This document shows, in pieces, positions 1,938-33,223 of a stretch of DNA of 64,000 nucleotides. The notes beneath the pieces were generated by a model. The model did no database searches and was not told where the DNA came from. It saw only the letters and a list, made by a program, of their open reading frames with translations. A program made the position numbers and the translations under genes. This stretch comes from Gammaproteobacteria bacterium. GTDB taxonomy: Bacteria; Pseudomonadota; Gammaproteobacteria; Pseudomonadales; Azotimanducaceae. The stretch's first letter is position 1, and each line of letters starts with the position of its first letter. The DNA is taken from positions 743-64,742 of the forward strand of contig PBRQ01000028.1 of assembly GCA_002725995.1 (NCBI GenBank). The letters are read 5' to 3'.

Positions 1938-1960
1938 AGGTTTCAGCTTCGCTGAAACCT
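1938..1960. terminator. Perfect 10-bp stem hairpin between convergent genes (possible bidirectional terminator)
   Basis: AGGTTTCAGC-TTC-GCTGAAACCT. It starts 14 nt after the SDR stop and overlaps the last codons of the minus-strand gene. There is no clear U-tract. Confidence 0.45.
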
Positions 1961-2953
1961 ATGCACGAAGTCGTTGTACTGTATATCCTGGCTATCACCC
2001 CAGCCGACCTTACCGCCGAGCTTCCATCGAGTCTGGCAGAAATAGACGTTCATGTTCTGCCAGGTTTGCCATGGCATTCTGGCTGTCACGGAGCCAGTGA
2101 TTTCATGCTCGCGCCCACCAACTTCCGTTAGGGAAAGTTCAAACAAGGTGGGTGCGAGTCCGTCTGTGTCGCGGGTTGTGAGTTTTGACGCAGACGCGAG
2201 GGGGACTGTCTCTCCATCCCTTCTGACATAACCCCAGATCAAATTTTTTCCGGCTGGACGGCCAGGATATGCATCCAGCCATTCCGGATTCTTTGCAGGG
2301 TCATCAAAAGCAAGGACATGAAATGCAAGCTCGTCGTTGAAGGCTCCGACCATCCAGGTCATTGGCGGTCCCCCACTTGCTGTCTCCTTACGTATACCAG
2401 CCCAGGATCGGTCACGGGTAAAGTAGCCATCAATCTCATAATCTGTGCCTGCCAACTGGAGTTGGCCCCTGGTACGCATGGACTGCGCGAAATGCTGACC
2501 ACCTGGTCGTCCCGCCGGCGGCATAATCGCCTTGTATCCAATCGAAAACGCCATGTCCCGATCTTCATCCTGACAGCTTATGTTGATTTCGTTGAGTGGC
2601 TCTATCACTTTTACCTTCAGGCCAAGCTCTTCAATGCCGTAGTCGTCAATATCTCCCTCAAGCATTGGCAGAAAGCCAAAATGGTTGATGTATTCGCAGG
2701 TCAGCGTGCTGGTTTTAATTCCTTTCCAGATGTAGACGCTGGCACTCATTACATGAAGCCGAGGGTGAAACCAGATGTAGATTTCACCGTTGATCTGGCT
2801 CTCGGGTATGTTGAATCCAAAGTAAGAAGTTTCTGTTGTTGCGTAGTGTGCATCCTCCGGGACAGGATGCAGGAATTCATCTTCAGGAACGGGTTTGCTG
2901 AGGGGCATGCCGTCAATGCCGCGTGATTGAGTAATTGTCTTTGAACTGTTCAT
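1943..2953 (-). CDS. Uncharacterised RDxSW-family protein, paralogue P1 of 6 (putative CrtC/AttH-like beta-fold)
   Basis: The N-terminal PEDEFLHPVPED matches DDEYLHPAPDG (P4) and EDEYRHEAPED (P5). The central YFTRDRSWAG matches the RDHSW motif of the other paralogues, and the C-terminal VGWGDSQ resembles their GxGxxE. GAAGGAG RBS; the start is 2 nt after the stop of the upstream kinase gene. Confidence 0.7.
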   Translation of the reverse strand: MNSSKTITQSRGIDGMPLSKPVPEDEFLHPVPEDAHYATTETSYFGFNIPESQINGEIYIWFHPRLHVMSASVYIWKGIKTSTLTCEYINHFGFLPMLEGDIDDYGIEELGLKVKVIEPLNEINISCQDEDRDMAFSIGYKAIMPPAGRPGGQHFAQSMRTRGQLQLAGTDYEIDGYFTRDRSWAGIRKETASGGPPMTWMVGAFNDELAFHVLAFDDPAKNPEWLDAYPGRPAGKNLIWGYVRRDGETVPLASASKLTTRDTDGLAPTLFELSLTEVGGREHEITGSVTARMPWQTWQNMNVYFCQTRWKLGGKVGWGDSQDIQYNDFVHRFQRS

Positions 2954-2955
2954 TT

Positions 2956-4431
2956 CTATGCTCCTTCACTTATCTTAAGCAACTGCGCACCTGTTTGTTG
3001 GACGAATTGGCGATAGAGCGGGATCCCCTGGTACGCCATCTTTGTTGCTCGGTAAGAATCACTCAAAAAGCCATACCAGGATACAGAGCAACAGGTAGCG
3101 TTGCGAACCTGGCCCCAGACTTCATAAAAGATGGAGTCCCGCTCGCGAAATTTGATCCCGCCTGCATCTTCGTAAGCTGCAAGAAATTGGTCCCAGGGCA
3201 TAAGGGGCTCAATGAATCTTCTGCAGTAACACAGATCCTCCATTGCATCACCGGCGTGTGCAAATTCCCAGTCGAGTAGTGCCACGATGGCTCCGTTATC
3301 AACAAGTATGTTGTGAAAGCCGACGTCTCCATGGCAAAGGGATATTATAGGAACATCGGCTGGGATATTGTTCAACAGCCACTGGAAACCAGCGGCCAGG
3401 GTTGGAGATACATGAACCCGCCGGTACAACCAGCGATCCTGCCACTCTTCTATATAGCTGCGAAGTGCTTCTCTGGGTGATTGCTGGGCATCAATCGAGA
3501 ACCCGTATCTGGAAGGGTCTTCATTGTGAAGCTTTGCCAAAATCGCTGCGAGATCGCTGCAAATAGATATGCTCTGTTTGCTGTCGGATCCCCAGGCTTC
3601 GGTCCCGGATTCACCAGACATCTTTTTCGATATCATAAACGGCTGACCAAAATAATCTGAATCCTGCTCACAAATAAGCGGTTCGGCCACCGGATACCCA
3701 TTCTCACAAAGGGCTTTCAGCAATTCATACTCATCAACAACAGTATTCTCGCCCGGCCCGAATGGCAGGTCCCGGCGGCTGACCAATGTCTCAATTTCAA
3801 CGCCTTTGACGGTCAGTTGAGAAATTGTGTGGGTGTCCTTGGAAAAACCACCTGGAATCCGCTTCACTCCAGCTACTTTGCCAACGTCCAGTAACGAGGG
3901 ATGTTTCTCTGCCAGGTAGTCGTTGACAATTTCATCTGTCAGATTCTTTTCCATGCTCGAGAGAAGCGAGGTGTTCCTGCTGGTACCTTCGCCCAGTGCC
4001 TGCTGCTCTGCAGCAAATAGATCCTGGTCATGGCGCAGGGTATCGAGCACAAACGGGTTAATTTCGGTGCCCTCAAAATGGTCAGCGGGAGCTTGAGAGA
4101 TAGCCATATCAACCGCTGATGCTGTTTCAAAATAATTTGTCGAAAAATCCGGACTGCCAACGGCAACGTCACTTTCAAGTTCATGGCCATGATTGCGATT
4201 GTTGGCTTGCCTGTTTCCTGGGTTGAGACCCTTGAGAAGGGCTGTGAGCTTCGCCGTATGTTCCGGCAGGAATTCCCCTGCTGACTGATCCCACATTGAT
4301 AAATAGGAGAGGACTTCCGTTGCCATCAGTGCTGAGAATTTGGCGTCGGAGCTCGTTAATTCAGGCAAGATAGTCGTCAGAATATCCGCCTTAACAGATT
4401 CGAGTACCTGTGAAAGGATAGGGTTTATCAT
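2956..4431 (-). CDS. APH-family phosphotransferase (kinase) with ~165-aa N-terminal helical extension
   Basis: The Brenner/APH catalytic motif is LCHGDVGFHNILVDNGAIVALLDWEFAHAGDAMEDL (HGDxxxxN...DWE). The APH domain begins near residue 165 (NDYLAEKHPSLLDVGKVAGVKRIPGGFSKDT). The N-terminal part resembles the separately encoded protein at 18991..19437. Confidence 0.85.
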   Translation of the reverse strand: MINPILSQVLESVKADILTTILPELTSSDAKFSALMATEVLSYLSMWDQSAGEFLPEHTAKLTALLKGLNPGNRQANNRNHGHELESDVAVGSPDFSTNYFETASAVDMAISQAPADHFEGTEINPFVLDTLRHDQDLFAAEQQALGEGTSRNTSLLSSMEKNLTDEIVNDYLAEKHPSLLDVGKVAGVKRIPGGFSKDTHTISQLTVKGVEIETLVSRRDLPFGPGENTVVDEYELLKALCENGYPVAEPLICEQDSDYFGQPFMISKKMSGESGTEAWGSDSKQSISICSDLAAILAKLHNEDPSRYGFSIDAQQSPREALRSYIEEWQDRWLYRRVHVSPTLAAGFQWLLNNIPADVPIISLCHGDVGFHNILVDNGAIVALLDWEFAHAGDAMEDLCYCRRFIEPLMPWDQFLAAYEDAGGIKFRERDSIFYEVWGQVRNATCCSVSWYGFLSDSYRATKMAYQGIPLYRQFVQQTGAQLLKISEGA

Positions 4432-4433
4432 GA

Positions 4434-5618
4434 TTATGACCTCAGCAATATGGTGCCTTTTTTGGCAAGTTCGTCAATTTCCTCGGAGCTGTAATTCATT
4501 TCATGGAGCAACTGCCTGCCATCCTGACCATGGCCAGGGGCAGAGCAGAGCGTCAGTTCGGAGCCAAAAGAGCTTGCCGCTGGCCTCGGTCCCCTGATAT
4601 TCCCAGCCAGGGGGTGGACAGTTTCTTGCAGATATCCAGCCGCTTCGACTTGAGGGTCAGATGCGACTTCTGCCGGTGATAAAACAGGCGCCGCAGGAAC
4701 ATCAGCCCCGCGAAGAACTTCGAGGAGGTCCGCCAGGGGGACATTAGAAATTGACTCCTGAAGCGTATTGAACCAGTCCGCTATGTCGGCGCCGCGTTTA
4801 GCGGCAGTCTCGAAGCGCCCGTTGTCGATCAAGTCCTGACGGTTAAGTGCCTCGCAGAAACTTTTTGCCTGCTTGTCGGTGCTGACCGCGAGACTGACCC
4901 ACCCATCTTTCGCCTTAAAGAGTCGGTAACTCGATAAGATATTGGGCTGATGTGTGGCATCATCATCCAGCAGACTGCAGTGCATCATGACGTCCATCCA
5001 GGTGAAGGTTATATTTGATTCCAGCATCCCGAGTTGTATGTGTGATCCTTCTCCCGTTCGGGCTGATTTAACCAGCGCTGCAGTAATTGCCTGGGCGTTG
5101 GCGGTCGCAGCCACTTTGTCGGCGACAAATCCGCGCACCAGTGTAGGATCGTCTCCAACCTGCTGGGCACTCGCCCATCCCGAAAGCGACTGGATGAGAG
5201 GATCATAAACAGGTAGATCCCTGTAGGGGCCGGTGGGCCCGAAGCCTGTTGATGAACAATAAACAAGGGATGGATATTTGCTGTTGACTGCATCGAACCC
5301 GAAACCCAGTTTAGAGAGTACGCCTGGGCGAAAACCTTCGATGAGTGCATCAGTAGTTTCCAGCAGTTGCCAAAGAATCTTCTTGCCGGCCTCATCTTTC
5401 AAATCCAGTGCAACCGACCGTTTGCCAGAATTAGCATGTGCAAACATAGCGCTGATGCCGCCTTTGTTGCTGCCATAGAATCGTAGTTCATCACCGGTGC
5501 CGGTATTTTCAATTTTGATGACCTCAGCGCCGTAGGATGCCAGCAATTGCGTAGCAAGCGGGACCGCTACCATCTGCCCCAGTTCAATGATTCGTATGCC
5601 TTCCAGTGGAGCTGTCAT
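4434..5618 (-). CDS. Family III CoA-transferase (CaiB/BaiF type)
   Basis: The N-terminal LEGIRIIELGQMVAVPLATQLLASYGAEVIKIE is the typical family III signature. The track ORF starts at GTG 5633, but AAGGAG precedes ATG 5618, which I prefer. Confidence 0.88.
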   Translation of the reverse strand: MTAPLEGIRIIELGQMVAVPLATQLLASYGAEVIKIENTGTGDELRFYGSNKGGISAMFAHANSGKRSVALDLKDEAGKKILWQLLETTDALIEGFRPGVLSKLGFGFDAVNSKYPSLVYCSSTGFGPTGPYRDLPVYDPLIQSLSGWASAQQVGDDPTLVRGFVADKVAATANAQAITAALVKSARTGEGSHIQLGMLESNITFTWMDVMMHCSLLDDDATHQPNILSSYRLFKAKDGWVSLAVSTDKQAKSFCEALNRQDLIDNGRFETAAKRGADIADWFNTLQESISNVPLADLLEVLRGADVPAAPVLSPAEVASDPQVEAAGYLQETVHPLAGNIRGPRPAASSFGSELTLCSAPGHGQDGRQLLHEMNYSSEEIDELAKKGTILLRS

Positions 5619-5794
5619 GCTGTCTCCTTTCACTCAGGTTGATGAATTAGTGCTTTTCTGCACTTTTTTAGAATCGCGGACCTCAGCCCGCTCGTGACAA
5701 ATCAACTGTTGTTGATTTTCGGCCGATACATTCATGTGTCGTTCTAACAGTCGGCTTTTCAGCAGCCTGCCAGCAGTTGTTATGGACCAGGAGT

Positions 5795-7201
5795 TCATGC
5801 CTGAAGCCACTCGGGCTTGCTTTCCCCGGGTTTCAGCGTTGGGCCTTGCCACACTGGTGCTGTTTCAGACATCTGTAGGACTGGTTTTAGCCTTTGCAGT
5901 TGCCCATACGATGACTCGCTGAATTCAGAATAGTCGTTAAACATCTCCCAGAGGCTGGCCTGGGTTTGCGATGCAGATTGATCGTAAGGTGTACCAAGGC
6001 TTAAAAACCACCTGGCCGTCTGGTTGAGTGATACCTTTACGTGCCAGGAGCCGCCAACCTCTGCCCGCTTCTTTAGTGCTGCCAGTACACCGTAGGCACC
6101 CCAGCAGCCCGTAGCATAGTCATGCATGGCGAAATGAAGCCGTTCTGGATCCGCAGGCGCCCCTGGTTGTTCGTGCAATAACAACACGCCAGATGCCGCT
6201 CTCACATTGCTGTCATAGCCGCGTTTATGTATCCATGGACCCTTGTGTCCATAGCAGTTTTCGGAAACGTAAATCACACCAGGGCTGGCTGCCGCGACCT
6301 GCTCTGGTGAAAACCCCCGCTGTGCCAGGTGTCCGGTGCGGAATGACTGGCTAAAAATATCGGCATCCCGCATTAGCTCTCTGAGCAGTCGCTTGTCTTC
6401 AGGTTTGTCGATATTTATATGCGCTCGCCGTTTGCCATGGCCCGTGTCGGCCTGGGAAGATTTCAGGTCTGCGAGGTGAGGAGCGCCGATGTGAAGTACG
6501 TCTGCACCAAACTCCGCGAGGGTGCGTGATACTGTCGGGCCTGCGAGTACGCGGGTCAAGTCCAGAACACGCAGACCACTCAGCGGTCTTGTCCCTTCAG
6601 GCAGGGGTGAGGGGGGTGCGTCACCAATTTGTTCCAGTTCAACCACCGGCAGACTGCTGGCCGCGTGTCCCTGGGGGTGGTTTAACCATTCCTTCTCATT
6701 GCGGAGCACGACTCCTGATAGATCCCTTTCTGTCAGGGCATCTTCCAGTTCGAAACTTTCCCATTCAGCTATTGCGGCTGCTGCCGAGTCACGATCTGGC
6801 TCACAGCCCAGTACTTCGAGGGTGCCGTTGGTGAGAGGCGGAAAAACACAGCTGATTGAAATCCACTTCCCGTCCCGGCACTTGAAGAGGCCTTCGACGG
6901 GCAGGTCATCCAGCTCGTCCATTGTGGTCGCAACCTCACCATCAACTTTGAGTAACCACATGCTGCTCATGAATAGTGCAGCATGGTTCAGGTCAACGTT
7001 GATTTCCTGTCGGCGCCCGCTACGGGCCGCCCAGATGTCATCGATACCGGAACCGACCATTGCCATCGCTGCGCCCATGCCAGAGGCAAGGCACATAGGG
7101 GAGGGGAATACGGGATCACCACCCTTGAAGCTCGTGGCTGACTGGGGAAATGAAACCCCTGAGGCGTCGATTATTCTGGCAAATTCCTTTTGTGTCATCA
7201 T
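5795..7201 (-). CDS. Family III CoA-transferase with ~200-aa N-terminal extension
   Basis: The internal LSGLRVLDLTRVLAGPTVSRTLAEFGADVLHIGAPH is the family III signature, beginning near residue 205. This is the first gene of the minus-strand operon 7201->1943. Confidence 0.85.
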   Translation of the reverse strand: MMTQKEFARIIDASGVSFPQSATSFKGGDPVFPSPMCLASGMGAAMAMVGSGIDDIWAARSGRRQEINVDLNHAALFMSSMWLLKVDGEVATTMDELDDLPVEGLFKCRDGKWISISCVFPPLTNGTLEVLGCEPDRDSAAAAIAEWESFELEDALTERDLSGVVLRNEKEWLNHPQGHAASSLPVVELEQIGDAPPSPLPEGTRPLSGLRVLDLTRVLAGPTVSRTLAEFGADVLHIGAPHLADLKSSQADTGHGKRRAHINIDKPEDKRLLRELMRDADIFSQSFRTGHLAQRGFSPEQVAAASPGVIYVSENCYGHKGPWIHKRGYDSNVRAASGVLLLHEQPGAPADPERLHFAMHDYATGCWGAYGVLAALKKRAEVGGSWHVKVSLNQTARWFLSLGTPYDQSASQTQASLWEMFNDYSEFSESSYGQLQRLKPVLQMSETAPVWQGPTLKPGESKPEWLQA

Positions 7202-7323
7202 GCCTGTTAAGGACCTTTGCCTGGGTTGATCGCGATCATCAGCATGAATGCGTCGGCGTCATAATGAGTTGATACAATAATGTAGCACGTTGTACCATGC
7301 AACCTGAGTTGTCTTCCTTTGGT

Positions 7324-8387: not shown

Positions 8388-8408
8388 AGAATAAGTGACA
8401 GGAGTAAG

Positions 8409-18359: not shown

Positions 18360-18836
18360 ATGGCGGTAAGTGCAGCTGAGATTGAAATAGGAAAACGATT
18401 GTTCATCGAGGGTTGGGGTGGTGATACACCCGAAGCTCCACTGCAATTTATGACTGAAGACGTTGTCATGCGAGATATTCTAGGGCATGCCGAAGCCATG
18501 CGCGGGCACCAGGAAGTGGTAGATTTCTGGGGTAAAGCTGCCGGAAATCTGCGCGTGCCACCGGAAGAGATCTTCGTCTCGGAAAATGGTATGTCCATGA
18601 CCTGGATGGCTTACGTCCGGATACTTGATGACAGCCAGGGAGCAGAAAATAAGGGCAGGTGGATGTGTGGCGAAGGCATGTCTCGCCTCGAGTTTCGAGA
18701 TGGCCTGGTTTGCCTTGAGGTTGACTACTGGAATGGACCCCAGGGGACATGCGATGACTGGGCCGAGCATCTTGCAGCCAGGGCTGCTATGACTGCGGAG
18801 CAACTGGGTCAAATTACCGGTGGGGATCTAAAGTAA
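18360..18836 (+). CDS. SnoaL-like (NTF2 superfamily) protein
   Basis: IGKRLFIEGWGGD...MRGHQEVVDFWGK...GMSRLEFRDGLVCLEVDYWN. AAGGAG RBS. Confidence 0.65.
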   Translation: MAVSAAEIEIGKRLFIEGWGGDTPEAPLQFMTEDVVMRDILGHAEAMRGHQEVVDFWGKAAGNLRVPPEEIFVSENGMSMTWMAYVRILDDSQGAENKGRWMCGEGMSRLEFRDGLVCLEVDYWNGPQGTCDDWAEHLAARAAMTAEQLGQITGGDLK

Positions 18837-18990
18837 ATTCCTGACAGGAACTGAAGAGCGCGGGTTGATCGGACAAGAATGCGTTAGAGCTTGTGCGGGA
18901 TAGCTGTGATGAGGCCGACTAGAAGAGCCTTGAGAAACACTGTGGATATTAGTCTGCAGGCACTTGTCTATAGGAACAGGAGAACAAGGG

Positions 18991-19437
18991 ATGACATTAC
19001 CGGTACCACCTGATGCTGCAATGATTTTGCAGAACAGCATCGTTACGCTTCGGGACGTCTTGTTACCGCTCACCAAAGATGATGAATATGCCCGCTTCAA
19101 TGGTGGCTTACTCGTTGGTGCGCTTGAATATGCACTTGCCTCCCTGGAGGAAGACAGGGCCAGCAAGAATCGAACCGGGTTGGCGGCGGCACTGGAAGAA
19201 TTACGGCCAGCACTGCTGCAGGCTGATAACGCCGAACTGATCGCCATGATCGATCTGGCATCCCCATTTGAAGCAGCATCGAAGTTGCTGGTATGGGGGC
19301 AGAACAACCCTGGAGAACTGGCGAATGAAGTGCAAAAAATATTGCGGGCGGAGCTAAATTTGCAACTTGATACAGAGTTAGGCGCATCAGTGCCGATAAT
19401 GGGTGCGTTTATGGCCGGTATGCGAGGTGATGTTTGA
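18991..19437 (+). CDS. Small helical protein translationally coupled to the APH-family kinase (putative kinase partner)
   Basis: AGGAG lies 8 nt before ATG 18991. Its stop TGA overlaps the TTG start of the kinase (TTGA). DVLLPLTKDDEYARFNGGLLVGALEYAL resembles TTILPELTSSDAKFSALMATEVLSYL in the N-terminal extension of kinase 2956..4431. The Ser-rich antisense ORF 18828..19454 is rejected. Confidence 0.6.
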   Translation: MTLPVPPDAAMILQNSIVTLRDVLLPLTKDDEYARFNGGLLVGALEYALASLEEDRASKNRTGLAAALEELRPALLQADNAELIAMIDLASPFEAASKLLVWGQNNPGELANEVQKILRAELNLQLDTELGASVPIMGAFMAGMRGDV

Positions 19438-20396
19438 ATAAGGAAAAGCGACATGCCGCTTTAGCACCCTACCTTCGGGACATTTTAGAGGCTGATGATA
19501 GTGTTGCTATCGTTGCTGAAAATCGCCTGACCATGGGGCAGTCACGGGCGATGTTTGTGTTGGACCTGGAATATGCCAAAGATGGTGCGGCGATCCAGCG
19601 CAAGGTAGTGGTCCGTGTTGAACAGTGGGGGCACCTGGGTTCCGATAGCGAGAATGAAGTGAATATCATGCGTGCCCTGCATGCGCTGGACTACCCGGTC
19701 GCAGAGATTCTGGGCTATGAGACATCAAGCGATTTACTTGAACAGCCCTTTTTTGTCATGGGCTTTGTGCCTGGCGTGAGTACCTTCTCGGAGGATACGG
19801 CGGATGAATATATTGCTGCACTGCATCGCCTGCACTCTATTGATGCGACCAGTGACGCCTTTGACTTCCTTGAAACACCAGGGGCACCACATGGTGCAGC
19901 CCTGCAGCAGGTGGAACGGTGGTATGACACTTATCGCTCCCACATAGTGGGTGAACCATCACCCCTGGTTGAGGAAGCGACACAGTGGCTGCGCAATAAT
20001 GCCCCGGAGAATGAGCGGGTAACTCTCGTCCATGGTGATCCAGGCCCTGGAAATTATCTCTATGACGATGGACATGTTACGGCGGTCGTTGACTGGGAGT
20101 TTATTCACAAGGGGGATCCATACGATGACTGGGCCTACCTGATTGCCATGCGAGGTGTGGCCTACCTGCAGGAAGACGACTGGATCGCAAGAATTGAAAA
20201 GATCACCGGCAGCAAAATAGACCGGCAGCGGCTGGAATACTGGAAGGCGGTCAACTTCCTGATGGGTGTCGGTATTGATCAGACATCGCACCGGATATAC
20301 GCCGATCACCAGAATCCAGCACCCAACCTACTGGCTATTGCAACGGGGGTTCACCTGTCGGCGCTAAGACGTTTGTGTAATGCGATATTCTTGTGA
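19434..20396 (+). CDS. APH-family phosphotransferase (kinase)
   Basis: LVHGDPGPGNYLYDDGHVTAVVDWEFIHKGDPYDDWAY (HGDxxxxN...DWE). The start is probably TTG, overlapping the upstream stop. Confidence 0.85.
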   Translation: MNKEKRHAALAPYLRDILEADDSVAIVAENRLTMGQSRAMFVLDLEYAKDGAAIQRKVVVRVEQWGHLGSDSENEVNIMRALHALDYPVAEILGYETSSDLLEQPFFVMGFVPGVSTFSEDTADEYIAALHRLHSIDATSDAFDFLETPGAPHGAALQQVERWYDTYRSHIVGEPSPLVEEATQWLRNNAPENERVTLVHGDPGPGNYLYDDGHVTAVVDWEFIHKGDPYDDWAYLIAMRGVAYLQEDDWIARIEKITGSKIDRQRLEYWKAVNFLMGVGIDQTSHRIYADHQNPAPNLLAIATGVHLSALRRLCNAIFL

Positions 20397-20502: not shown

Positions 20503-22398
20503 CTAGAGGGTTCGGCCGACCTCGTGGCCCTCAACTATGGCTTCCCTGAATCTGTCATGACCATTGGCATCACCAATGACATGTATGTCTGTAACCTGTG
20601 TTTTTAGGGATTCGGCCAGTTCCTTGTCCGCGTCATAGCCAATGGCAAGAACGATCGTGTCCACCTTGAAGAAACGGGTCTTGCCGTTGATCGTCACGCT
20701 AGCACCTTCGGGCGTGATTTCTTCAATCGTCGTAAACTCATGGGTCATCACACCTGCCATTGCCACGTTGTCCAGCATTGCGGGTCTATTGAACATTGAG
20801 AAGTCCCTCGCCAGTTCACTACGTGCGACCAGGTCCACAGCCCTGCCCTGCTTGGCCAGTAGTTCTGCTGTTTCTAGACCGACCATGCCGCCACCAATAA
20901 CCAGGACCTTTTGCCCCACCGGTACTTCGCCTGTTATTGCCGTTTCGGCTGGCACGACATTGTCACCCTCCATGCCCAGCACATTGAGCCCCCTTGGTTT
21001 TGCGCCAATAGCCAGAACCACGGCATCCGGCTTGACCTCGCTGACGAGGTCAGCATTCACTTCTGTGTCTAGCTCGATTTTGACGCCAGCTTTTTTCATA
21101 CCTGTTTCAAGGTATTTTCTGAAGTCATCGACATCTTCTTTGCCATGACCGGCTGCAGCAGCATACAGTAGTCCACCCAGCCGATTGTCTCTCTCGTACA
21201 GGGTTACATCATGTCCTCTCTCGGCTGCTACCCTTGCCGCTTCCATGCCCGCAGGGCCGGAGCCGGCAATCATGACCTTCCGTGCTTTTTCGGCCGGCCC
21301 AAACTCAGTCTCGGCTTCATAGCATAGCCGGGCATTGACGGCACAGCTCATGTGATCGTACTTGGATCGGTCAAAACATGTGTTGCAACCAAGGCAGGGT
21401 GTTATCGTCTCCGAGAGTCCAGCCTGCGCCTTGTTGGGCCACTCAGGATCAGCCATCAGCGCTCTTGCCATGCCGATAATATCGGCTTTACCAGATCGGA
21501 GAATCTCTTCAGCCTCACCGGGTTGGGATATTCTTCCTACAGCGATTATTGGGATATCAACGACCTTTTTGATAGCGCCAGCCCAGTCAGCAAAACAGTT
21601 ACGTGGAAATGAGATCATCAGTGGCACACAGGATGAGATAAAACCCCGGTTGTGACTGTTGGCTCCTTCGGAGATGATCAGTGCATCGACGCCTGACTCC
21701 TCAAGCAGCTGGGCAGCGCGGCAGGAATCCCCCAGTGAGATGCCATTGTGCTCCGGCTCCATCGCAGCAAGCCTGAAGGTAATACCAAAATCGTCCCCGA
21801 CCGATTTGCGGATAGCCTCTACGGTTTCAGTCATCCAGCGGACCCTGTTCTCGATTGGTCCGCCGTATTCGTCCTCCCGGTGATTGTCCATTGGCGAGAG
21901 AAACTGCCGCCAGATGTAGGCATGGGTTGCATGTAGCTCCATGAAATCAAATCCGGCTTCCCGCTGGTTGTAGGCGGCTTCCGCGAGCCAGGCCGTGTAT
22001 TGATGCATTTCCTCGACCGTAATTTCGAGTGGCCTCGGGTCGGGCCAGTCAATGGCAATGGATTGTTCCGTCGCCGGTGACCAGCCACCGGAAGGTGTCA
22101 GGGGGCGAGTGTCTGTTTTCTCCGGGCCGTAGATAGCGAGGGACTGGGTACCGACATAACAATCTTCGGCTGCGTCGTGCATGGTTTTTGCGAACCGCTT
22201 AAGTTCCTTGGTCGGGTGGCGAAGTATCTCCATATTGGCCAGACCACCCGTTGTGAGTGCCGCAACGCCACCCCTGGCTCGTGCCGAATAGTAGTTCAAG
22301 GCAGTTGCATTACGGTGGCCAGGATTACCAAGGGGCAGGTGGTAAGTCCTGTTCTTGAAGGTCATGGGTCCGACTTTAATAGGCTCGAAAAGTTTCAT
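20503..22398 (-). CDS. FadH/BaiH-class NAD(P)H:flavin oxidoreductase (OYE TIM barrel + 4Fe-4S + FAD/NAD domains), copy 1
   Basis: MTFKNR OYE-type start; Cys cluster CLGCNTCFDRSKYDHMSC; two dinucleotide folds, IAGSGPAGMEAA and VIGGGMVGLETA. About 88% aa identity to copy 2 over the stretches compared by eye. Confidence 0.85.
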   Translation of the reverse strand: MKLFEPIKVGPMTFKNRTYHLPLGNPGHRNATALNYYSARARGGVAALTTGGLANMEILRHPTKELKRFAKTMHDAAEDCYVGTQSLAIYGPEKTDTRPLTPSGGWSPATEQSIAIDWPDPRPLEITVEEMHQYTAWLAEAAYNQREAGFDFMELHATHAYIWRQFLSPMDNHREDEYGGPIENRVRWMTETVEAIRKSVGDDFGITFRLAAMEPEHNGISLGDSCRAAQLLEESGVDALIISEGANSHNRGFISSCVPLMISFPRNCFADWAGAIKKVVDIPIIAVGRISQPGEAEEILRSGKADIIGMARALMADPEWPNKAQAGLSETITPCLGCNTCFDRSKYDHMSCAVNARLCYEAETEFGPAEKARKVMIAGSGPAGMEAARVAAERGHDVTLYERDNRLGGLLYAAAAGHGKEDVDDFRKYLETGMKKAGVKIELDTEVNADLVSEVKPDAVVLAIGAKPRGLNVLGMEGDNVVPAETAITGEVPVGQKVLVIGGGMVGLETAELLAKQGRAVDLVARSELARDFSMFNRPAMLDNVAMAGVMTHEFTTIEEITPEGASVTINGKTRFFKVDTIVLAIGYDADKELAESLKTQVTDIHVIGDANGHDRFREAIVEGHEVGRTL

Positions 22399-23472: not shown

Positions 23473-25371
23473 CTAGAGGTTTCTGCCGACTTCATGACCC
23501 TCAATGATGGCTTCCCTGAACCTGTCATGACCATTGGCATCACCAATGACATGTATGTCTGCATTCTGTTGCTTCAAGGACTCTGCCAGTTCGGTATCAG
23601 CATCATAGCCAATAGCCAGGATGATCGTATCTACCTTGAAGAAACGGGTCTTGCCGTTAATCGTCACGTTAGCACCTTCGGGTGTGATCTCTTCAATCGT
23701 TGTAAATTCATGGGTGATTACGCCAGCCATTGCCACCTTGTCCAGCATTGCCGGTTTGTTGAACATTGAAAAGTCTCTCGCCAGTTCACTACGGGCAACC
23801 AGGTCCACTGCCTTGCCATGATTAGCCAGTAGTTCTGCGGTTTCAAGACCGACCATGCCGCCACCAATGACCAGTACCTTTTGCCCCACTTCTACTTCGC
23901 CCGTTATCGCCAATTCAGCAGGTACGACATTGTCACCTTCCATTCCCAGCACGTTGAGTCCCCTCGGTTTGGCGCCGATTGCCAGAACCACGGCATCCGG
24001 CTTGACCTGGGTGACGAGTTCGGCATTTACTTCTGTGTCCAGCTCTATTTTGACGCCCGCTCGTTCCATGCCTGTTTCCAGGTATTTTCTGAAGTCATCG
24101 ACATCACCTTTACCTTCACCAGCAGCGGCGGCGTACAGCAGCCCCCCGAGGCGGTTTTCTCTTTCGTACAGGGTCACGTCATGGCCTCTCTCAGCTGCGA
24201 TCCTTGCCGCTTCCATACCAGCAGGGCCTGAACCAGCTATCATGATCTTGCGAGCGTTTTCGGCTGGGCCATACTCAGTTTGTTCTTCATAGCAGAGTCT
24301 GGCATTGACGGCGCAGGTCATGTGATCGTATCCCTGGGAATAGTCAAAACATGTGTTGCAACCAAGGCAGGGAATGATTGTCTCAGAGAGCCCTGCCCGT
24401 GCCTTGTTAGCCCACTCGGGATCAGCCATCAAGGCTCTTGCCAGGCCGATGATATCAGCCTGACCTGACTGCAGAATTTCTTCGGCCTCGGCTGGTTGCG
24501 TTATTCTCCCCACGGCGATGACGGGAATATCGACGACCTTCTTAATAGCTCCCGCCCAATGCGCAAAACAGTTGCGATCGAAAGAGATCATCAGGGGTAC
24601 GCAGGAGGAGATAAATCCACGGTTGTGACTGTTGGCTCCCTCAGAGATGATCAAGGCATCGACGCCGGCCTCTTCAAGCAGCTGCGCAGCACGGCTGGAA
24701 TCTCCCAGTGAGATACCATTGTGCTCGGGCTCCATCGCAGCAAGCCTGAAGGTAATACCAAAATCATCACCCACTGACTTGCGGATGGCCTCAACGGTTT
24801 CAGTCATCCAGCGCACCCGATTCTCGATCGGTCCACCGTATTCATCTTCCCGGTGATTGTCCATGGGCGAGAGAAACTGTCGCCAGATATAGGCGTGGGT
24901 TGCATGCAGTTCCATGAAATCAAATCCGGCTTCCCGCTGGTTGTAGGCGGCTTCCGCGAGCCATGCCGTGTACTGATGCATCTCCTCGACTGTAATTTCA
25001 ACCGGCCTCGGATCAGGCCAGTCAATGGCAATGGACTGTTCCGTCGCCGGTGACCAGCCGCCCGAAGGTGTCAGGGGTCGTTTATCTATTTTCTCGGGGC
25101 CGTAGATAGCGAGAGACTGGGTGCCGACATAACAGTCATCCGCCGAGTCGTGGATGGTTTTTGCGAACCGCTTCAGTTCCTCGGTGGGGTGACGAAGTAT
25201 TTCCATATTGGCGATGCCACCCGTGGTGAGCGCTGCAACGCCACCCTCTGCACGTGCTGAATAGTAGTTCAGTGCTGTTTGACTGCGATGGCCAGGCTCA
25301 CCAAGGGGCAGGTGATAAATCCTGTTCTTGAAGGTCATGGGTCCGACTTTAATAGGCTCAAATAATTTCAT
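23473..25371 (-). CDS. FadH/BaiH-class NAD(P)H:flavin oxidoreductase, copy 2
   Basis: Same architecture as copy 1, with CLGCNTCFDYSQGYDHMTC (one-residue insertion), IAGSGPAGMEAA and VIGGGMVGLETA. Confidence 0.85.
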   Translation of the reverse strand: MKLFEPIKVGPMTFKNRIYHLPLGEPGHRSQTALNYYSARAEGGVAALTTGGIANMEILRHPTEELKRFAKTIHDSADDCYVGTQSLAIYGPEKIDKRPLTPSGGWSPATEQSIAIDWPDPRPVEITVEEMHQYTAWLAEAAYNQREAGFDFMELHATHAYIWRQFLSPMDNHREDEYGGPIENRVRWMTETVEAIRKSVGDDFGITFRLAAMEPEHNGISLGDSSRAAQLLEEAGVDALIISEGANSHNRGFISSCVPLMISFDRNCFAHWAGAIKKVVDIPVIAVGRITQPAEAEEILQSGQADIIGLARALMADPEWANKARAGLSETIIPCLGCNTCFDYSQGYDHMTCAVNARLCYEEQTEYGPAENARKIMIAGSGPAGMEAARIAAERGHDVTLYERENRLGGLLYAAAAGEGKGDVDDFRKYLETGMERAGVKIELDTEVNAELVTQVKPDAVVLAIGAKPRGLNVLGMEGDNVVPAELAITGEVEVGQKVLVIGGGMVGLETAELLANHGKAVDLVARSELARDFSMFNKPAMLDKVAMAGVITHEFTTIEEITPEGANVTINGKTRFFKVDTIILAIGYDADTELAESLKQQNADIHVIGDANGHDRFREAIIEGHEVGRNL

Positions 25372-27903: not shown

Positions 27904-28911
27904 ATGACAATTGTAGATGATGACGAGTATTTACATCCGGCACCAGATGGATCAGATGGGCTTTGGAGTGACAACCTGTGGTTTTCGTTCTGTGATCGTG
28001 AAGCAGATATATTTGGTATCAACCACTTCCACGTAACGAACAAGGGATATGCTCGATTCAGCACCTGCCTGGTGATTGATGGAATCCCCATGCCCTGGGC
28101 AAACAAAGTGCCCTGGGATGATATTGGTAAGTTCGATGTCCTGACGGATGGCGGTAGCATGACCTACCAGGTGATCAAGCCCCAGGAAGAACTCAGGATT
28201 ACAGCGGACAACGAAAAGTATGGATTTGACGTGACCTTCAGGGCGCGGTTTCCAGTGTTTGATTACAATGACTGTCTTGGCGGTAACCCGCTTAAATCTG
28301 CCGGGGAGTACGGGGGACACTACGAGCAAGGGCTTCAGTGTAATGGAGATTTTGAAGTGCGTGGTGGTCCTCGAGCGGGATTGAGAAAGGTTGACTGTTA
28401 TTCTCACCGCGATCATTCCTGGACGGACCGCTTTCGTAGCGGCTCTCCATGGGAGCCAAATAAGCCTGCCACCAGAGAGCAGTCTTTGGGCCACTACTGG
28501 CCTTCAATTCAGACTGACAGCATGCACCTGAATGCATTTGGTTATATGAGTCCTTCCTTCCAGGCAGTGAATCCGGAACGGTCCAGCATCGGTGGATTTC
28601 TGTCGGACAAGAATGGTTCACGGCCCATACAAGGTGCGCAATGCCTTGACTGCCGTTTGGAAGATGATGGACGCTCAGCGATGAGTTTCCGCTATCAATT
28701 CACTTTGCCCGATGGTGAAGTCATTCATGTCAAAACTGGCCGCAAGTATGCTCAGTCAGTCAATGGGTTGATGCGCGGAGAAAATGATGCCGAGTGTTTA
28801 CTCGACTGTTATGAAGGTTTCTTCGATTTTGAAGTGGAAGAGACGGGCGAGCGTGGGTATGGTTGTGCTGAATACTCAATCAATCCACCATTTCCACGGT
28901 GGCGGTACTAA
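27904..28911 (+). CDS. Uncharacterised RDHSW-family protein, paralogue P4 (short subfamily)
   Basis: DDEYLHPAPDG, WSDNLWFSFCDREADIFGINHFHVTNKG, RFPVFDY, YSHRDHSWTDRF, FFDFEVEETGERGYGCAEYS. Confidence 0.72.
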   Translation: MTIVDDDEYLHPAPDGSDGLWSDNLWFSFCDREADIFGINHFHVTNKGYARFSTCLVIDGIPMPWANKVPWDDIGKFDVLTDGGSMTYQVIKPQEELRITADNEKYGFDVTFRARFPVFDYNDCLGGNPLKSAGEYGGHYEQGLQCNGDFEVRGGPRAGLRKVDCYSHRDHSWTDRFRSGSPWEPNKPATREQSLGHYWPSIQTDSMHLNAFGYMSPSFQAVNPERSSIGGFLSDKNGSRPIQGAQCLDCRLEDDGRSAMSFRYQFTLPDGEVIHVKTGRKYAQSVNGLMRGENDAECLLDCYEGFFDFEVEETGERGYGCAEYSINPPFPRWRY

Positions 28912-28983
28912 ATAAGTTAACTGGCCGATGAAATTAGCAACAAAGAAACTTGATATTCAAATACCAGATATAAGGAAAGAGCC

Positions 28984-29952
28984 ATGGTAGTTAAAGCAGA
29001 AGACGAATACAGGCATGAAGCGCCAGAAGACCTGAGCGCTGGTTTCTGGGGCGACACGCTCTGGGTCAGTGTGGTGGATCGCGAAGCAAATATCTTCGGA
29101 ATAAACCACTTCACACTAACGAACAAAGGCTGGGGGCGATTTGAGGCACTCTACGTTATCGATGGTGTTCAGCAGCAGTACGGAAACAAGTACCCCTTGA
29201 CCAAGGAGGCGGACCAGGGGCCTTGGAGTGATGGGCTCCTGACCTATGAAGTGGTTAAGCCGCTGGAGGAAATCAGGATTACATTTGATGGACCACGATT
29301 TGGCTTCGATCTGAGCTTTAAGGGTCGCTTCCCTGTCTTCGACTACGAAGACTCTGTCAACGGAAACCCACTCAGCCATGGTCACTATTACGGCGGTCAT
29401 TTTGAGCAGGGGTTGCATTGTACGGGCCCATTTGAAATCCGAGGCGGACCCTGCAAGGGCGAAACACGCCAGCTGGATTCATGGTCTCACCGCGATCATT
29501 CTTGGTCTACCCGCTTTGCGGATGAGCCACCCTGGGATTATTCACAACAAAATATCGCCAACCATTACTGGCCCTCCATTCAGTTGGTGGACAAGCACAT
29601 TAATGTTTTTGGTGTACATCAGCCTGACGGTCCTTTCGGTGGCTTCGTTTCAGATGCCAATGGCTCAAGAGCGATGCTCAGTGCTTCCTGCGAGGTTCTG
29701 AAATCTGACAATCAGCGTGATGCCGCGGCTTTCAGGTACACTTTGGAAATGCCAGATGGTGAAACCCTACATGTTCGAACAGGGCGCAAATACGGTCAGG
29801 TAAAACTCTGGGATCGGGGTGAAAATGACCTGGAGAATCGCCTCGACTGCTACGAGCCATTTTTTGACTTTGAAGTTGAAGAGACCGGTGAGCGGGGTTA
29901 TGGCGTATGTGAGTATTCTGTCCATCCACCGTGGCCTCGCTGGCTGGTATAA
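28984..29952 (+). CDS. Uncharacterised RDHSW-family protein, paralogue P5 (short subfamily)
   Basis: EDEYRHEAPED, WGDTLWVSVVDREANIFGINHF, WSHRDHSWSTRF, FFDFEVEETGERGYGVCEYS. Roughly 75-80% identical by eye to P6. AAGGAAAGAG RBS. Confidence 0.72.
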   Translation: MVVKAEDEYRHEAPEDLSAGFWGDTLWVSVVDREANIFGINHFTLTNKGWGRFEALYVIDGVQQQYGNKYPLTKEADQGPWSDGLLTYEVVKPLEEIRITFDGPRFGFDLSFKGRFPVFDYEDSVNGNPLSHGHYYGGHFEQGLHCTGPFEIRGGPCKGETRQLDSWSHRDHSWSTRFADEPPWDYSQQNIANHYWPSIQLVDKHINVFGVHQPDGPFGGFVSDANGSRAMLSASCEVLKSDNQRDAAAFRYTLEMPDGETLHVRTGRKYGQVKLWDRGENDLENRLDCYEPFFDFEVEETGERGYGVCEYSVHPPWPRWLV

Positions 29953-29976
29953 AATACGCCTGTCTCAACAGGAGCA

Positions 29977-32115
29977 ATGAGTATGAGCACACACAAAACC
30001 TTTTGCCGATTCTGCCATGCTTATTGCGCCATTGAGGTCGATGTTGAAGATGGTGTTCCCATTGAAGTAAGAGGGGATACCAGTGATCCAGTCTATTCCG
30101 GTTACACTTGTATCAAGGGGCGCCAGCTTCCTGCCCAGTTCACCAACCCAGGGCGGGTGCGCAAGCCCTTAAAGAGAATGCCCGATGGTTCGTACCAGGA
30201 AATTGATTTACAGGTTGCCCTCGATGAGATTGGTGCCAAGGTCAAGACCTTGCTCGATGACAACCCACGCGGTGTAGCCACCTATATCGGTTCGTACGGG
30301 TTTCAGAATTCCGCTGCGCTACATATAGCGAAGTCGTGGCACAAGAGCGTCGGCTCAACCTCATATTACACTTCCGTAACCATCGATCAACCGGCGAAGC
30401 AGATTGCCTGGTCAAGAGTCGGCTCCTGGGGCGGTGGTAGCCACAGTTTTACCGATGCAGATGTGGTCATGCTCATTGGTAATAATGCCGTGGTATCACA
30501 GTATTCGCCCTTCGGCGGTATTCCTCCATTCAGTCCCTACAAAAGGCTGCGTGATGAAGTCAAGAAGGGCATGAAGGTCATCACGGTAGATCCACGTAAA
30601 ACAGAGGTTGCAAACCGGTCCCACATACACATGCAGATTAATCCCGGTAAGGATGCGACACTGCTGTCCGGTATGATCAATATCATATTGAGTGAAGGGC
30701 TGGAGGATACTGAATTTTGCAATGCATATGTTCAGGACCTAGACAGTTTCAGAAACCGGGTAAAGGACTATACCCCTGGCTATGTTGCTCAGCAGTGCGG
30801 TATCCCGGAAGAGCAGTTATTTGAAGCCACGCGTCTCTTCGCAGCCGGGCCAAGGGGCGTAGCATCGGCAGGGACAGGGCCTGACATGGCATCTCATGCG
30901 GTCCTGACGGAACACCTGATTGTCGTGCTCAACCTAATCTGCGGCAGGGTCAACAGGGAGGGTGAGCGATTCCCAAACCCCGGTATGATGACGCCCGAGA
31001 TACCGCGCAGGGCTGAAGTAATTCCTCCTTCCCCTGTGTTTGGCATCGGTCCCAAGAGTCGGTTCAGGGGGCTGGGCGAGGTATTTGGAGAGATGCCTAC
31101 TGCTACTCTCAATGATGAAATCCTGGAGGACGGAGAAGGCCAGATCAAAGCGTTATTTTGTATGGGTGGCAATCCGATGGTCGCATTTCCGGATCAGGAT
31201 AAAACCAAACGCGCGATGGACAAGCTGGAATTGCTCGTTTGCATTGATATTGTCCGTTCCGCGACATCCAAATTAGCAGACTACATTCTCCCACCCACCC
31301 TGTCTCTTGAACGTGATGACGTGACCATGCTGACAGATGTCTGGTACGACCAGCCCTATAGCCACTACACGGAGGCCATTCTTGAGAAGAATCCTCAGAG
31401 CCTCGAAGAGTGGGAGTTTTACTGGGAAATATCGCGAAGGCTGGGCATACCCATAGATCTGCCGGGCGGGCAGCTAGGCCTGGAGACATGTCCAACCAAG
31501 TTTGAAGCGCTGGACCTTCTAACCCCGGGTGCCAAGGTGCCAGTTGCCGATATTCGGGCAAAACCTGCCGGGCATCTGTTTGAGAAAATCAACATCACGG
31601 TTGAAGCCGGGTCAAATAGCGATTCACTGTTTCAACTGGAGCCTGAAGGCGTTGCTGAAGAAATACAGGAAATTCTGGCGGAGCCTGTTTGGACCGACGG
31701 CAAAATTATTGATAATGACAAGGAGTACACCCACCTGTTGATAAGCCGTCGATTGAAGCATTACTTTAATTCTTCAGGTCACACATTGCCGGCATTGATG
31801 GCGAAGGGCACGACTAACTACGCCTATATGAACCCATCTGACCTAGCGGAAATGAGGATTGAGGATGGGCAGTTAGTTGAAATAAGTGCTTCAGCAGGAT
31901 CATTAGTGGGTGTGGCAGAATCCGCGCAAGATGTAAAATCAGGAACTGTGTCTATGGCTCATGCTTTCGGTGATCTACCGGGTAACTTTGGTGATGTTCG
32001 AGAGGTTGGCAGCAGCACCAACCGTCTGGTTGACGATGATCGCACCTATTGCAAGATCAGTGGAATGCCTCGTATGAGTGCTATCCCTGTCAATCTGAGA
32101 GTCGTTGCTGAATAG
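29977..32115 (+). CDS. Single-subunit cytoplasmic molybdopterin (bis-MGD, DMSO-reductase superfamily) oxidoreductase with N-terminal 4Fe-4S domain
   Basis: The N-terminal Cys pattern is C-x2-C-x3-C-x27-C (FCRFCHAYC...YTCIKG). There is no twin-arginine signal. The C-terminal dinucleotide-binding barrel is MNPSDLAEMRIEDGQLVEISASAGSLVGVAE. The start may be the second ATG at 29983, which has better RBS spacing. Confidence 0.85.
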   Translation: MSMSTHKTFCRFCHAYCAIEVDVEDGVPIEVRGDTSDPVYSGYTCIKGRQLPAQFTNPGRVRKPLKRMPDGSYQEIDLQVALDEIGAKVKTLLDDNPRGVATYIGSYGFQNSAALHIAKSWHKSVGSTSYYTSVTIDQPAKQIAWSRVGSWGGGSHSFTDADVVMLIGNNAVVSQYSPFGGIPPFSPYKRLRDEVKKGMKVITVDPRKTEVANRSHIHMQINPGKDATLLSGMINIILSEGLEDTEFCNAYVQDLDSFRNRVKDYTPGYVAQQCGIPEEQLFEATRLFAAGPRGVASAGTGPDMASHAVLTEHLIVVLNLICGRVNREGERFPNPGMMTPEIPRRAEVIPPSPVFGIGPKSRFRGLGEVFGEMPTATLNDEILEDGEGQIKALFCMGGNPMVAFPDQDKTKRAMDKLELLVCIDIVRSATSKLADYILPPTLSLERDDVTMLTDVWYDQPYSHYTEAILEKNPQSLEEWEFYWEISRRLGIPIDLPGGQLGLETCPTKFEALDLLTPGAKVPVADIRAKPAGHLFEKINITVEAGSNSDSLFQLEPEGVAEEIQEILAEPVWTDGKIIDNDKEYTHLLISRRLKHYFNSSGHTLPALMAKGTTNYAYMNPSDLAEMRIEDGQLVEISASAGSLVGVAESAQDVKSGTVSMAHAFGDLPGNFGDVREVGSSTNRLVDDDRTYCKISGMPRMSAIPVNLRVVAE

Positions 32116-32200
32116 CAGGTCGGATCTAAGATCACCGATACGCGCTCTGAAAACGGGTCGTGTATCATCGCTTACTTTTTTGTAGTCAGGATGATTGGAT

Positions 32201-33223
32201 ATGGTTGAAGTAGTAGATGATTTTCGACATGTCGCCCCGGCAGAAGCGGAAAATGAACTCTGGGGTGATACGCTCTGGATCAGCGTTGTCGATAGGGAAG
32301 CCAATATATTTGGCATTATCCACCTTCATCTAACGAACAAAGGTTGGGGACGGTTTGAATCACTTTTTGTGATTGATGGTGTGCAGCAGCAGTACGGGAA
32401 CAAGTATCCGCTAACAAAAGACACGGACCAGGGACCCTGGTCAGATGGGTTGCTCACCTATGAAGTAATCAAACCCCTCGATGAAATTCGTGTCCAGTTT
32501 AATGGTCCGCGCTACGGCTTTGATTTGAACTTCAAGGGTCGCTTCCCAGTATTTGATTATGCCGACTCTGTCTATGGCAACCCCTTGAGCCATGCAAACT
32601 ATTATGGCGGACATCTTGAACAGGGTATGCACTGCACCGGTAGTTTTGAGATTCGCGGTGGACCCAATAAGGGCGATGTGCGCAAGCTGGATTCCTGGTC
32701 CCACCGGGACCACTCCTGGTCGACTCGGTTTGCAGATGAGCCGGCATGGGACTACGGACAACACAATATACAATCCCACTACTGGCCTTCTATTCAACTT
32801 CCCGACAAACATATCAATGTATTTGGACTGTTCCGAGAAGATGTTCTCAAGCTAACGTTTGAACATGGCACTGAGGCAGTCGACAGTGGGTCTGACAAAC
32901 AGATTATTGGTGGATTTGTTGCCAGTGCGGATGGGGTCGAGGCTGTTCGAGGTGCATCTGCAAAGGTGCTGCTTGAGGATGATGGAAGAACTGCCGCAGC
33001 CTTCAGCTACGAAATTATCATGCCGGACGAAAGTATTATTCATGTGAATACGGGCCGGAAGTATGGTCAGGTCAAGCTCTGGGATCGTGGTGAAAATGAC
33101 CTTGAGAACAGGCTGGATTGCTATGAACCTTTCTTTGATTTCGAGATTGAGGAAACCGGGGAGCAGGGATATGGGGTTTGTGAATATTCAATCGCACCAC
33201 CCTGGCCGCGGTGGCTCGTATAA
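32201..33223 (+). CDS. Uncharacterised RDHSW-family protein, paralogue P6 (short subfamily)
   Basis: DDFRHVAPAE, WGDTLWISVVDREANIFGIIHLH, WSHRDHSWSTRF, FFDFEIEETGEQGYGVCEYS. It carries a ~20-aa insertion relative to P5. ATG 32201 is preferred over the track start TTG 32195. Confidence 0.72.
   Translation: MVEVVDDFRHVAPAEAENELWGDTLWISVVDREANIFGIIHLHLTNKGWGRFESLFVIDGVQQQYGNKYPLTKDTDQGPWSDGLLTYEVIKPLDEIRVQFNGPRYGFDLNFKGRFPVFDYADSVYGNPLSHANYYGGHLEQGMHCTGSFEIRGGPNKGDVRKLDSWSHRDHSWSTRFADEPAWDYGQHNIQSHYWPSIQLPDKHINVFGLFREDVLKLTFEHGTEAVDSGSDKQIIGGFVASADGVEAVRGASAKVLLEDDGRTAAAFSYEIIMPDESIIHVNTGRKYGQVKLWDRGENDLENRLDCYEPFFDFEIEETGEQGYGVCEYSIAPPWPRWLV

Follow-up and report, generated by a model that had tools for sequence, protein, structure and literature searches.

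In Sterolibacterium denitrificans the cholesterol side chain is phosphorylated on its tertiary 25-hydroxyl by an ATP-dependent kinase, 25-HSK (WP_154717265.1, which carries the annotation 'phosphotransferase family'), and a separate C-O lyase then eliminates the phosphate to leave a delta-24 alkene (PMC7411048, PMC8449060). The lyase gene was not known in 2021, when the paper on 25-HSK reported no candidate near the kinase gene in S. denitrificans, and in 2024 the lyase was still termed 'putative' (PMC11061730). The Protein Data Bank (PDB) now holds entries for a 25-phosphosteroid lyase (25-PSL; 9fzn, 9g2i and 9g4c, release January 2026), one of them titled '25-phosphosteroid lyase + phosphate + desmost-1,4-diene-3-one' (the 9g4c complex). 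A related logic is known from ACAD10/ACAD11, where phosphorylation of a 4-hydroxyacyl-coenzyme A (CoA) is followed by loss of the phosphate, which yields an enoyl-CoA (PMC11342911, PMC12440821). In Mycobacterium tuberculosis Rv3168 and Rv3169 form a single operon which is repressed by the TetR regulator Rv3167c (PMC5340868), and the structure of Rv3168 (PDB 3att) has been described as that of a putative aminoglycoside phosphotransferase (PMC3691515). For the CrtC superfamily it has been proposed that an acidic Asp donates a proton to an isoprenoid C=C bond, giving a tertiary carbocation (PMC6013536). Here we analyse a stretch of 64,000 nucleotides (the window) of contig PBRQ01000028.1, from the marine gammaproteobacterial metagenome-assembled genome (MAG) GCA_002725995.1, which encodes six proteins, P1 to P6, that we call RDHSW proteins after their central R-D-(H/R)-S-W motif, and two kinases of the aminoglycoside phosphotransferase (APH) family, APH_A and APH_B. 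The six are paralogues within the 25-PSL/Rv3169 superfamily, and we consider it probable that an APH kinase and an RDHSW lyase together perform an ATP-driven dehydration.

All six open-reading frames (ORFs) are intact in the ORF list (Table 1); those of P2, P4 and P6 are listed from a TTG which lies 3-6 nt upstream of an ATG, and the ATG starts are equally plausible. Hidden Markov model (HMM) scans of all window ORFs returned no family members beyond the six and only two APH kinases. The six fall into three subfamilies: a long one of P2 and P3 (42% identity, E=1e-98), a short one of P4, P5 and P6 (P4-P5 52%, P4-P6 48% and P5-P6 71% identity in BLASTP, the last pair 75% in a MAFFT alignment), and P1. 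Pairwise BLASTP gave no link between subfamilies, the best cross-subfamily match being P1-P4 at E=0.025, and profile methods were therefore needed. The NCBIfam model NF053593, named for Rv3169, matches all six proteins: P3 (269 bits) and P2 (220 bits) pass its cutoff of 150, and P1 and P4-P6 fall short of it, with 38-43 bits and E-values near 1e-10 (P1 9e-10, P4 5e-10, P6 4e-10). In Pfam, DUF7064 (PF23212) matches P1 with 52.7 bits against a gathering threshold of 24.7, DUF7065 (PF23213) gives 22.8 bits for P3 and 17.6 for P1, both under its threshold of 27, and across these two models P4 matches weakly and P2, P5 and P6 have no match. Subfamily alignments built from database homologues were compared in hhalign, where short against long scored 94.1% (E=1.3e-7), P1-type against long 97.5% (E=5e-12) and P1-type against short 98.2% (E=5.6e-14). 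An alignment of 36 sequences covering all three subfamilies has Q150, G156, R176, D177, W180, W207 and G363 invariant, with D9, E10, H14, S179 and H222 conserved in at least 90% (P3 numbering), and AlphaFold2 (AF2) models, which cover P1 and P5, match the same PDB folds in Foldseek. On this profile and structural evidence P1-P6 are true paralogues of a single family, for which an exhaustive profile search, with clustering at 50% identity, gave 3,055 clusters within E<=1e-3 and 1,531 within E<=1e-10.

The relationship to 25-PSL is closest in P3, which phmmer aligned to 9fzn with E=3.8e-30 (query residues 2-315, chain residues 2-313), whilst the long-subfamily profile reached E=5e-42 over residues 1-312 of 362; identity to 25-PSL is 28% for P3 and 27% for P2. 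Judged by sequence, P2 and P3 join the recently defined 25-PSL/Rv3169 enzyme family, in which 25-PSL is the sole characterised member, as new members, and P1 and P4-P6 are divergent subfamilies related to it at the level of the superfamily. In an alignment of P1-P6 with 25-PSL residues 1-312, as recovered from the HMMER output, D9, H14, G138, Q149, G155, G161, R175, D176, S178 and W179 (25-PSL numbering) are invariant in 25-PSL and all six, the core of 25-PSL reads GSRDRSWG, and its C-terminal GEVGYGMMEF fits the fourth motif of the family, G-x-G-x-x-E. The AF2 models of P5 (pLDDT 92.8, pTM 0.91) and P1 (pLDDT 92.9) are both all-beta, and the fold that they predict is an AttH/CrtC-like double beta-barrel. 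25-PSL has the highest Foldseek TM-score for both models: 9g4c_B is matched by P5 with E=2.9e-10 and TMq 0.71, and is the top match of P1 with E=1.1e-12 and TMq 0.65. Next comes the CrtC-domain kievitone hydratase 7a0t, matched by P5 (E=2.3e-10, TM 0.59) and by P1 (E=3.9e-10, TM 0.55), and after it fungal Diels-Alderases and then AttH 2ich, matched by P1 (E=1.6e-6, TM 0.55).

These comparisons confirm the observation behind the original prediction, made by eye from the window's sequence, and support its interpretation in part. Its grouping of the six ORFs into one family is borne out by NF053593, by the hhalign scores of 94-98%, by AF2 and Foldseek and by the 36-sequence alignment, and its division into a long pair, a short trio and P1 as an outlier agrees with BLASTP. 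The motif strings that it quoted were all found in the translations, except that the C-terminal G-x-G-x-x-E has no Glu in P1, where it reads GWGDSQ. Its estimate of ~75-80% identity for P5-P6 is slightly higher than the measured values (71% in BLASTP, 75% in MAFFT), and its guess of a CrtC/AttH-type beta-barrel, offered from motif shapes, was correct, since both models are all-beta and match kievitone hydratase (TM 0.55-0.59) and AttH (0.55). The description of the family as uncharacterised has to be given up: P3 matches 25-PSL, and curated models already exist in Rv3169_fam, DUF7064 and DUF7065.

Both kinases retain intact HGDxGxxN and DWEF catalytic motifs. The start codon of P1 lies 2 nt past the stop codon of APH_A, and a further 2-nt spacer separates APH_A from the two CoA-transferase genes before it, so that the four make a tightly spaced minus-strand operon, an order repeated in another of the loci surveyed below (L001). 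The best PDB matches of APH_A are 3dxp and the ACAD11 kinase domain 8v3v (~1e-10 to 1e-11); its N-terminal ~200 aa have no Pfam match, and this long form is kept in the partners of P1-type genes, for example the 468-aa kinase of Steroidobacter denitrificans. APH_B lies 1.3 kb downstream of P3 on the same strand, in the order P3, SnoaL, small ORF, APH_B, whilst P2 is 3.6 kb from its nearest kinase. In the PDB, APH_B matches 3ats, the companion entry of 3att (Rv3168), best (E=1.6e-17), followed by 9fsg, an 'APH-like protein' (1e-10), and ACAD11 (2e-10); 9fsg, 9ft5 and 9fu5 ('APH-like protein', 379 aa) are candidate structures of 25-HSK.

The linkage between the two gene types recurs in other genomes. 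A genome scan with the P1-family alignment gave 78 P1-type loci, spanning Steroidobacteraceae, Sphingobium, Novosphingobium, Croceicoccus estronivorus, Mycobacterium, Halieaceae and others, whose ORFs were searched with the window proteins. An APH-like ORF is present in 63 of the 78, lies within 5 kb of the P1-type gene in 61 and within 300 bp in 39 (38 on the same strand); the background density of such ORFs, taken at distances of over 4 kb from family genes, is 0.029 per kb. The APH and DUF7064 genes of Steroidobacter denitrificans have a 4-bp overlap, and an APH-P1type-SDR-P3type cassette (SDR, short-chain dehydrogenase/reductase) recurs in at least seven loci. Both long-type loci examined (2/2) carry an APH gene in the cassette: Desertimonas flava and one MAG share the arrangement SDR / P3type-epimerase-small ORF-APH-SnoaL-SnoaL-CoA ligase, which parallels the P3 cassette of the window. 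Metagenomic loci of the short subfamily show a recurrent SDR-P5type-APH-ZnADH-glyoxalase-P4type-SDR cassette, and kinases of the APH_B type adjoin P3-type and P5/P4-type genes elsewhere. Paralogue expansion is not peculiar to this window, and expansions of P1-type genes are larger still in other genomes: at least two family members occur in 25 of the 78 P1-type loci, among which one betaproteobacterial MAG contributes nine (L010, L025, L063, L065, L067, L069, L070, L072 and L078) and one Steroidobacteraceae MAG seven (L008, L032, L033, L036, L037, L064 and L077).

What the data demonstrate is homology, a common fold, conserved motifs and a conserved linkage to kinases, and from this a two-step reaction can be proposed. 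An APH-family kinase would spend ATP on phosphorylating a hydroxyl that leaves poorly and is probably tertiary or secondary; the molecule carrying it would be a hydrophobic intermediate of lipid, isoprenoid or steroid-like type, and may be a CoA ester. The barrel of the RDHSW protein would then bind the phosphoester and eliminate inorganic phosphate, leaving a C=C bond. It is plausible that the conserved Arg, Ser, His and Gln are phosphate ligands and that the Asp serves as base or carbocation stabiliser. APH_A and P1 form a translationally close pair behind the two CoA-transferases, P3 forms a cassette with APH_B, and P2 and P4-P6 would be substrate-diversified lyases served by a possibly promiscuous APH_A or APH_B, or by kinases encoded elsewhere. 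The alkenes may feed the nearby SDRs, enoate/dienoyl reductases and acyl-CoA dehydrogenase (ACAD), and perhaps the molybdo/tungsto-enzyme MopB. Since CoA-transferases precede APH_A-P1 and the kinases resemble that of ACAD11, some substrates may be hydroxyacyl-CoAs. The neighbours in related loci (3-beta-HSD-like epimerases, Rieske oxygenases, P450s and an RPE65-family gene), together with a P450 fusion, point to steroid or terpenoid-like substrates. That fusion, P0496 (797 aa, one cluster), has a P450 domain at 193-362 upstream of an RDHSW/DUF7065 domain at 424-787 and may be a gene-calling artefact, though a fusion of hydroxylase and putative lyase would fit a logic of hydroxylate, activate, eliminate. 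It was the sole long match examined in looking for a kinase-lyase (Rosetta-stone) fusion, and that candidate was rejected accordingly.

A number of observations weigh against a kinase-lyase assignment for all six proteins. Identity to 25-PSL across the six is only 19-28%; P1 and P4-P6, at 38-43 bits with NF053593, lie far under the cutoff; PDB sequence searches returned nothing significant for P5 alone, P1 alone or the short-subfamily profile, and the P1-family profile reached 25-PSL at a non-significant E=0.022. The fold is shared with hydratases and Diels-Alderases at comparable Foldseek E-values, so that other chemistries are possible. Six putative lyases face two kinases in the window, P4-P6 lie 7.5-12 kb from the nearest kinase with none adjoining, and an APH gene adjoins in only 4 of the 21 short-type loci of at least 5 kb (within 5 kb in 7 of 21). 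MopB is not of the S25DH/S26DH type, and the Sterolibacterium pathway is therefore not simply replicated. A literature search turned up no paper on the structure or mechanism of 25-PSL, so the roles given to conserved residues are inferred, as are the substrates and the pairing of particular kinases and lyases, and the activity of the six is putative.

These points leave room for cofactor-independent (de)hydratases of the CrtC/kievitone-hydratase type, which would use an acidic Asp to add water directly at isoprenoid-type C=C bonds, or to remove it, with no phospho-intermediate, either for all six proteins or for P4-P6, which have no adjoining kinase in the window. Kievitone hydratase 7a0t is indeed the top-ranked Foldseek match of P5, it and AttH are also significant for P1, weak profile matches to 7a0q and 2ich (E=0.2-1.1) were seen, and an invariant Asp is present here, an acidic Asp being what is proposed to create the tertiary carbocation in the CrtC superfamily (PMC6013536). 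We regard this as unlikely, because none of the six matches Pfam CrtC or Lipocalin_9 at E<=1, the hydratase TM-scores of 0.55-0.59 compare with 0.65-0.71 for 25-PSL, significant similarity at the sequence level (P3 and the long-subfamily profile) is to 25-PSL alone, the invariant Arg, Ser and His are common to this phosphate-binding enzyme, and kinase adjacency is conserved in other genomes for all three subfamilies. Another reaction of the barrel (isomerisation, cyclisation, a pericyclic step or an epoxide rearrangement), or a non-catalytic role in binding or carrying hydrophobic intermediates, is less likely still. The Diels-Alderases Fsa2, CghA and Phm7 are significant in Foldseek (1e-6 to 1e-8), the CrtC-domain enzymes PenF and AsqC perform epoxide rearrangements (PMC6013536), and the island around P1-P6 is rich in SnoaL-like proteins and luciferase-like monooxygenases; however, the Diels-Alderase matches have TM 0.46-0.58 and 8-12% identity, the polar residues strictly conserved with 25-PSL speak for a shared catalytic machinery, an invariant R-D-x-S-W would be superfluous in a pure carrier, and neither carrier nor pericyclase would explain the kinase linkage.

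Phosphate elimination by the RDHSW proteins is thus likelier than hydration, because their nearest characterised relative eliminates from a phosphoester made by a kinase and because kinase adjacency is conserved. For the same reasons the cofactor-independent C=C hydratase of the original prediction is not supported. Its picture of a substrate-diversified family among catabolic genes fares better, the neighbours of P1-P6 including SDRs, kinases, CoA-transferases and a Mo enzyme as it had said; it had listed the kinases only as one neighbour type among several, and missed their functional partnership. A genome survey for co-occurrence with APH kinases, as it suggested, gave an adjoining APH in 39 of the 78 P1-type loci.

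Table 1. Genes of the RDHSW family, kinases and neighbouring genes, in positions of the window.
Feature	Coordinates	Strand	Description
P1	1943..2953	-	DUF7064-type member of the 25-PSL/Rv3169 superfamily; putative phosphoester (C-O) lyase
P2	14618..15841	+	Long-subfamily Rv3169-family member; putative phosphoester lyase
P3	16994..18130	+	Rv3169-family member; nearest 25-phosphosteroid lyase relative within the window
P4	27904..28911	+	Short-subfamily member; motif residues kept; 52% identity to P5
P5	28984..29952	+	Short-subfamily member; AF2 model and Foldseek
P6	32201..33223	+	Short-subfamily member; 71% identity to P5
APH_A	2956..4431	-	491-aa APH-family kinase; proposed P1 partner; Pfam APH E=3.6e-25, residues 215-425
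Two family-III CoA-transferases	4434..7201	-	Pfam CoA_transf_3 E=3e-97 and 4.6e-54
SnoaL-like gene	18360..18836	+	Between P3 and APH_B; Pfam SnoaL_2 E=1.4e-10
Small ORF, 157 aa	18964..19437	+	4-nt overlap with the start of APH_B; may be a kinase accessory protein
APH_B	19434..20396	+	320-aa APH-family kinase; Pfam APH E=2.1e-29; proposed partner of P3, possibly of P2 and P4-P6
MopB molybdo/tungsto-enzyme	29977..32115	+	Cytoplasmic; between P5 and P6; Pfam Molybdop_Fe4S4, Molybdopterin, Molydop_binding

Further genes of the island accompany the family elsewhere. SnoaL genes are present too in the homologous cassettes L128 and L130, and the 157-aa small ORF, which has no Pfam match, shares 33% identity (pairwise E=8e-7) with a 127-aa gene located just before APH in Desertimonas flava (L128 8171..8554); a minus-strand ORF that overlaps the small ORF (18828..19454) is probably spurious. 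The second CoA-transferase (5795..7201, minus strand, 468 aa) matches family III only from residue 207, leaving an N-terminal region of ~200 residues unmatched. MopB has its best PDB matches in Fdh, FdhF, acetylene hydratase and NapA (1e-30 to 1e-35) and passes the cutoff of no NCBIfam equivalog; its Fe4S4 domain begins at residue 3, which leaves no room for a Tat signal. An assignment as steroid hydroxylase of the S25DH/S26DH type was rejected, MopB being a cytoplasmic protein similar to Fdh, Nap and acetylene hydratase and not to type-II DMSOR or S25DH. Orthologues of MopB (390-650 bits) adjoin family genes in five unrelated loci (L075, L078, L105, L106 and L110), and the MopB subfamily that co-localises with the RDHSW family appears from its matches to be an uncharacterised one.

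Two minus-strand genes (20503..22398 and 23473..25371), each with old yellow enzyme (OYE) and pyridine-nucleotide-disulphide-oxidoreductase regions and resembling 2,4-dienoyl-CoA reductase, share 91% identity and flank an SDR gene, an arrangement that suggests a recent tandem duplication within the island. Directly after P6 lies a SurE-like phosphatase/nucleotidase gene (33297..34397, plus strand), whose product is unusually long at 366 aa with the SurE domain at 53-257; it was rejected as part of the system, as no counterpart lies beside family members at the other loci covered by the search. The end of the island is near 38 kb and the remaining window is unrelated, including a minus-strand region (43005..58617) with a DUF885 gene, a MoxR AAA+/DUF58/transglutaminase-like set and an operon for an ABC peptide transporter of the Opp/Dpp type.

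The breadth and modularity of the kinase-lyase combination, its link to Rv3168-Rv3169 and its association with MopB are of note, and do not amount to a categorically new system. More tentatively, pairs of an APH kinase and an RDHSW lyase might constitute a widespread, modular 'ATP-dependent dehydratase' device, the six-fold expansion in the window reflecting a pathway that reuses it. If so, the device would serve aerobic marine Gammaproteobacteria, sphingomonads, Steroidobacteraceae and mycobacteria (Rv3168-Rv3169) in making alkenes from unreactive alcohols carried on skeletons of sterol, isoprenoid or lipid type, the expansion would split into three co-evolving kinase/lyase types, and some copies would be tied to a new cytoplasmic MopB that could hydroxylate or hydrate the resulting alkene; Rv3168 would then be half of a lipid dehydratase and not an aminoglycoside kinase. 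If the kinase-lyase assignment is right, ATP-dependent dehydration would reach beyond anaerobic cholesterol degradation and be a common catabolic tool of mycobacteria and of bacteria from oxic marine and soil habitats, giving a testable function to thousands of DUF7064, DUF7065 and 'Rv3169 family' proteins and to the 'aminoglycoside phosphotransferase-like' kinases that neighbour them, among them the TetR-regulated Rv3168-Rv3169 operon of M. tuberculosis. For work on substrate specificity the island itself offers a compact set in which three divergent subtypes of lyase accompany two of kinase.

Compared with the described systems, the locus shares one part or another with each. As in ACAD10/11, an APH-type kinase is predicted to phosphorylate a hydroxyl, the window kinases match the ACAD11 kinase domain (~1e-10), and CoA-transferases and an ACAD are encoded in the island, but in ACAD10/11 the eliminating enzyme is an FAD-dependent ACAD domain and not an RDHSW barrel. 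CrtC, kievitone hydratase and AttH (7a0q, 7a0t and 2ich) have the double beta-barrel fold in common with the six proteins (TM 0.55-0.59), and the CrtC/kievitone-hydratase type likewise acts on the tertiary centre and alkene of an isoprenoid terminus with an Asp proposed as essential; in contrast, there is no significant sequence or Pfam match between these enzymes and the six, and they add water with no ATP, phosphate or partner kinase, in the opposite physiological direction. Elimination from a tertiary phosphate by 25-PSL would formally be the reverse of CrtC chemistry on the same kind of moiety, which would rationalise the shared fold. With Rv3168-Rv3169 the window shares the linkage of a kinase to an RDHSW protein, and APH_B has its best PDB match there (3ats), although the gene order and the genes between differ. 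The system of 25-PSL differs in coming from a denitrifier, whereas the window belongs to a marine gammaproteobacterial MAG with many oxygenase-type neighbours and no Mo hydroxylase of the S25DH/S26DH type; kinase and lyase adjoin here, whereas the 25-HSK paper found no lyase candidate near the kinase gene of S. denitrificans, and the window holds six paralogues, possibly with CoA esters as substrates. It is nevertheless the nearest of the described systems: 25-PSL is homologous to P2 and P3 over nearly the full length and is the best match by TM-score for P1 and P5, the N-terminal D-(D/E)-x-x-x-H, the Gln, the R-D-(H/R)-S-W and the C-terminal G-x-G-x-x-E motifs are common to both, and 25-PSL, like the proposed RDHSW lyases, acts after a separate ATP-dependent kinase of the annotated 'phosphotransferase family'.

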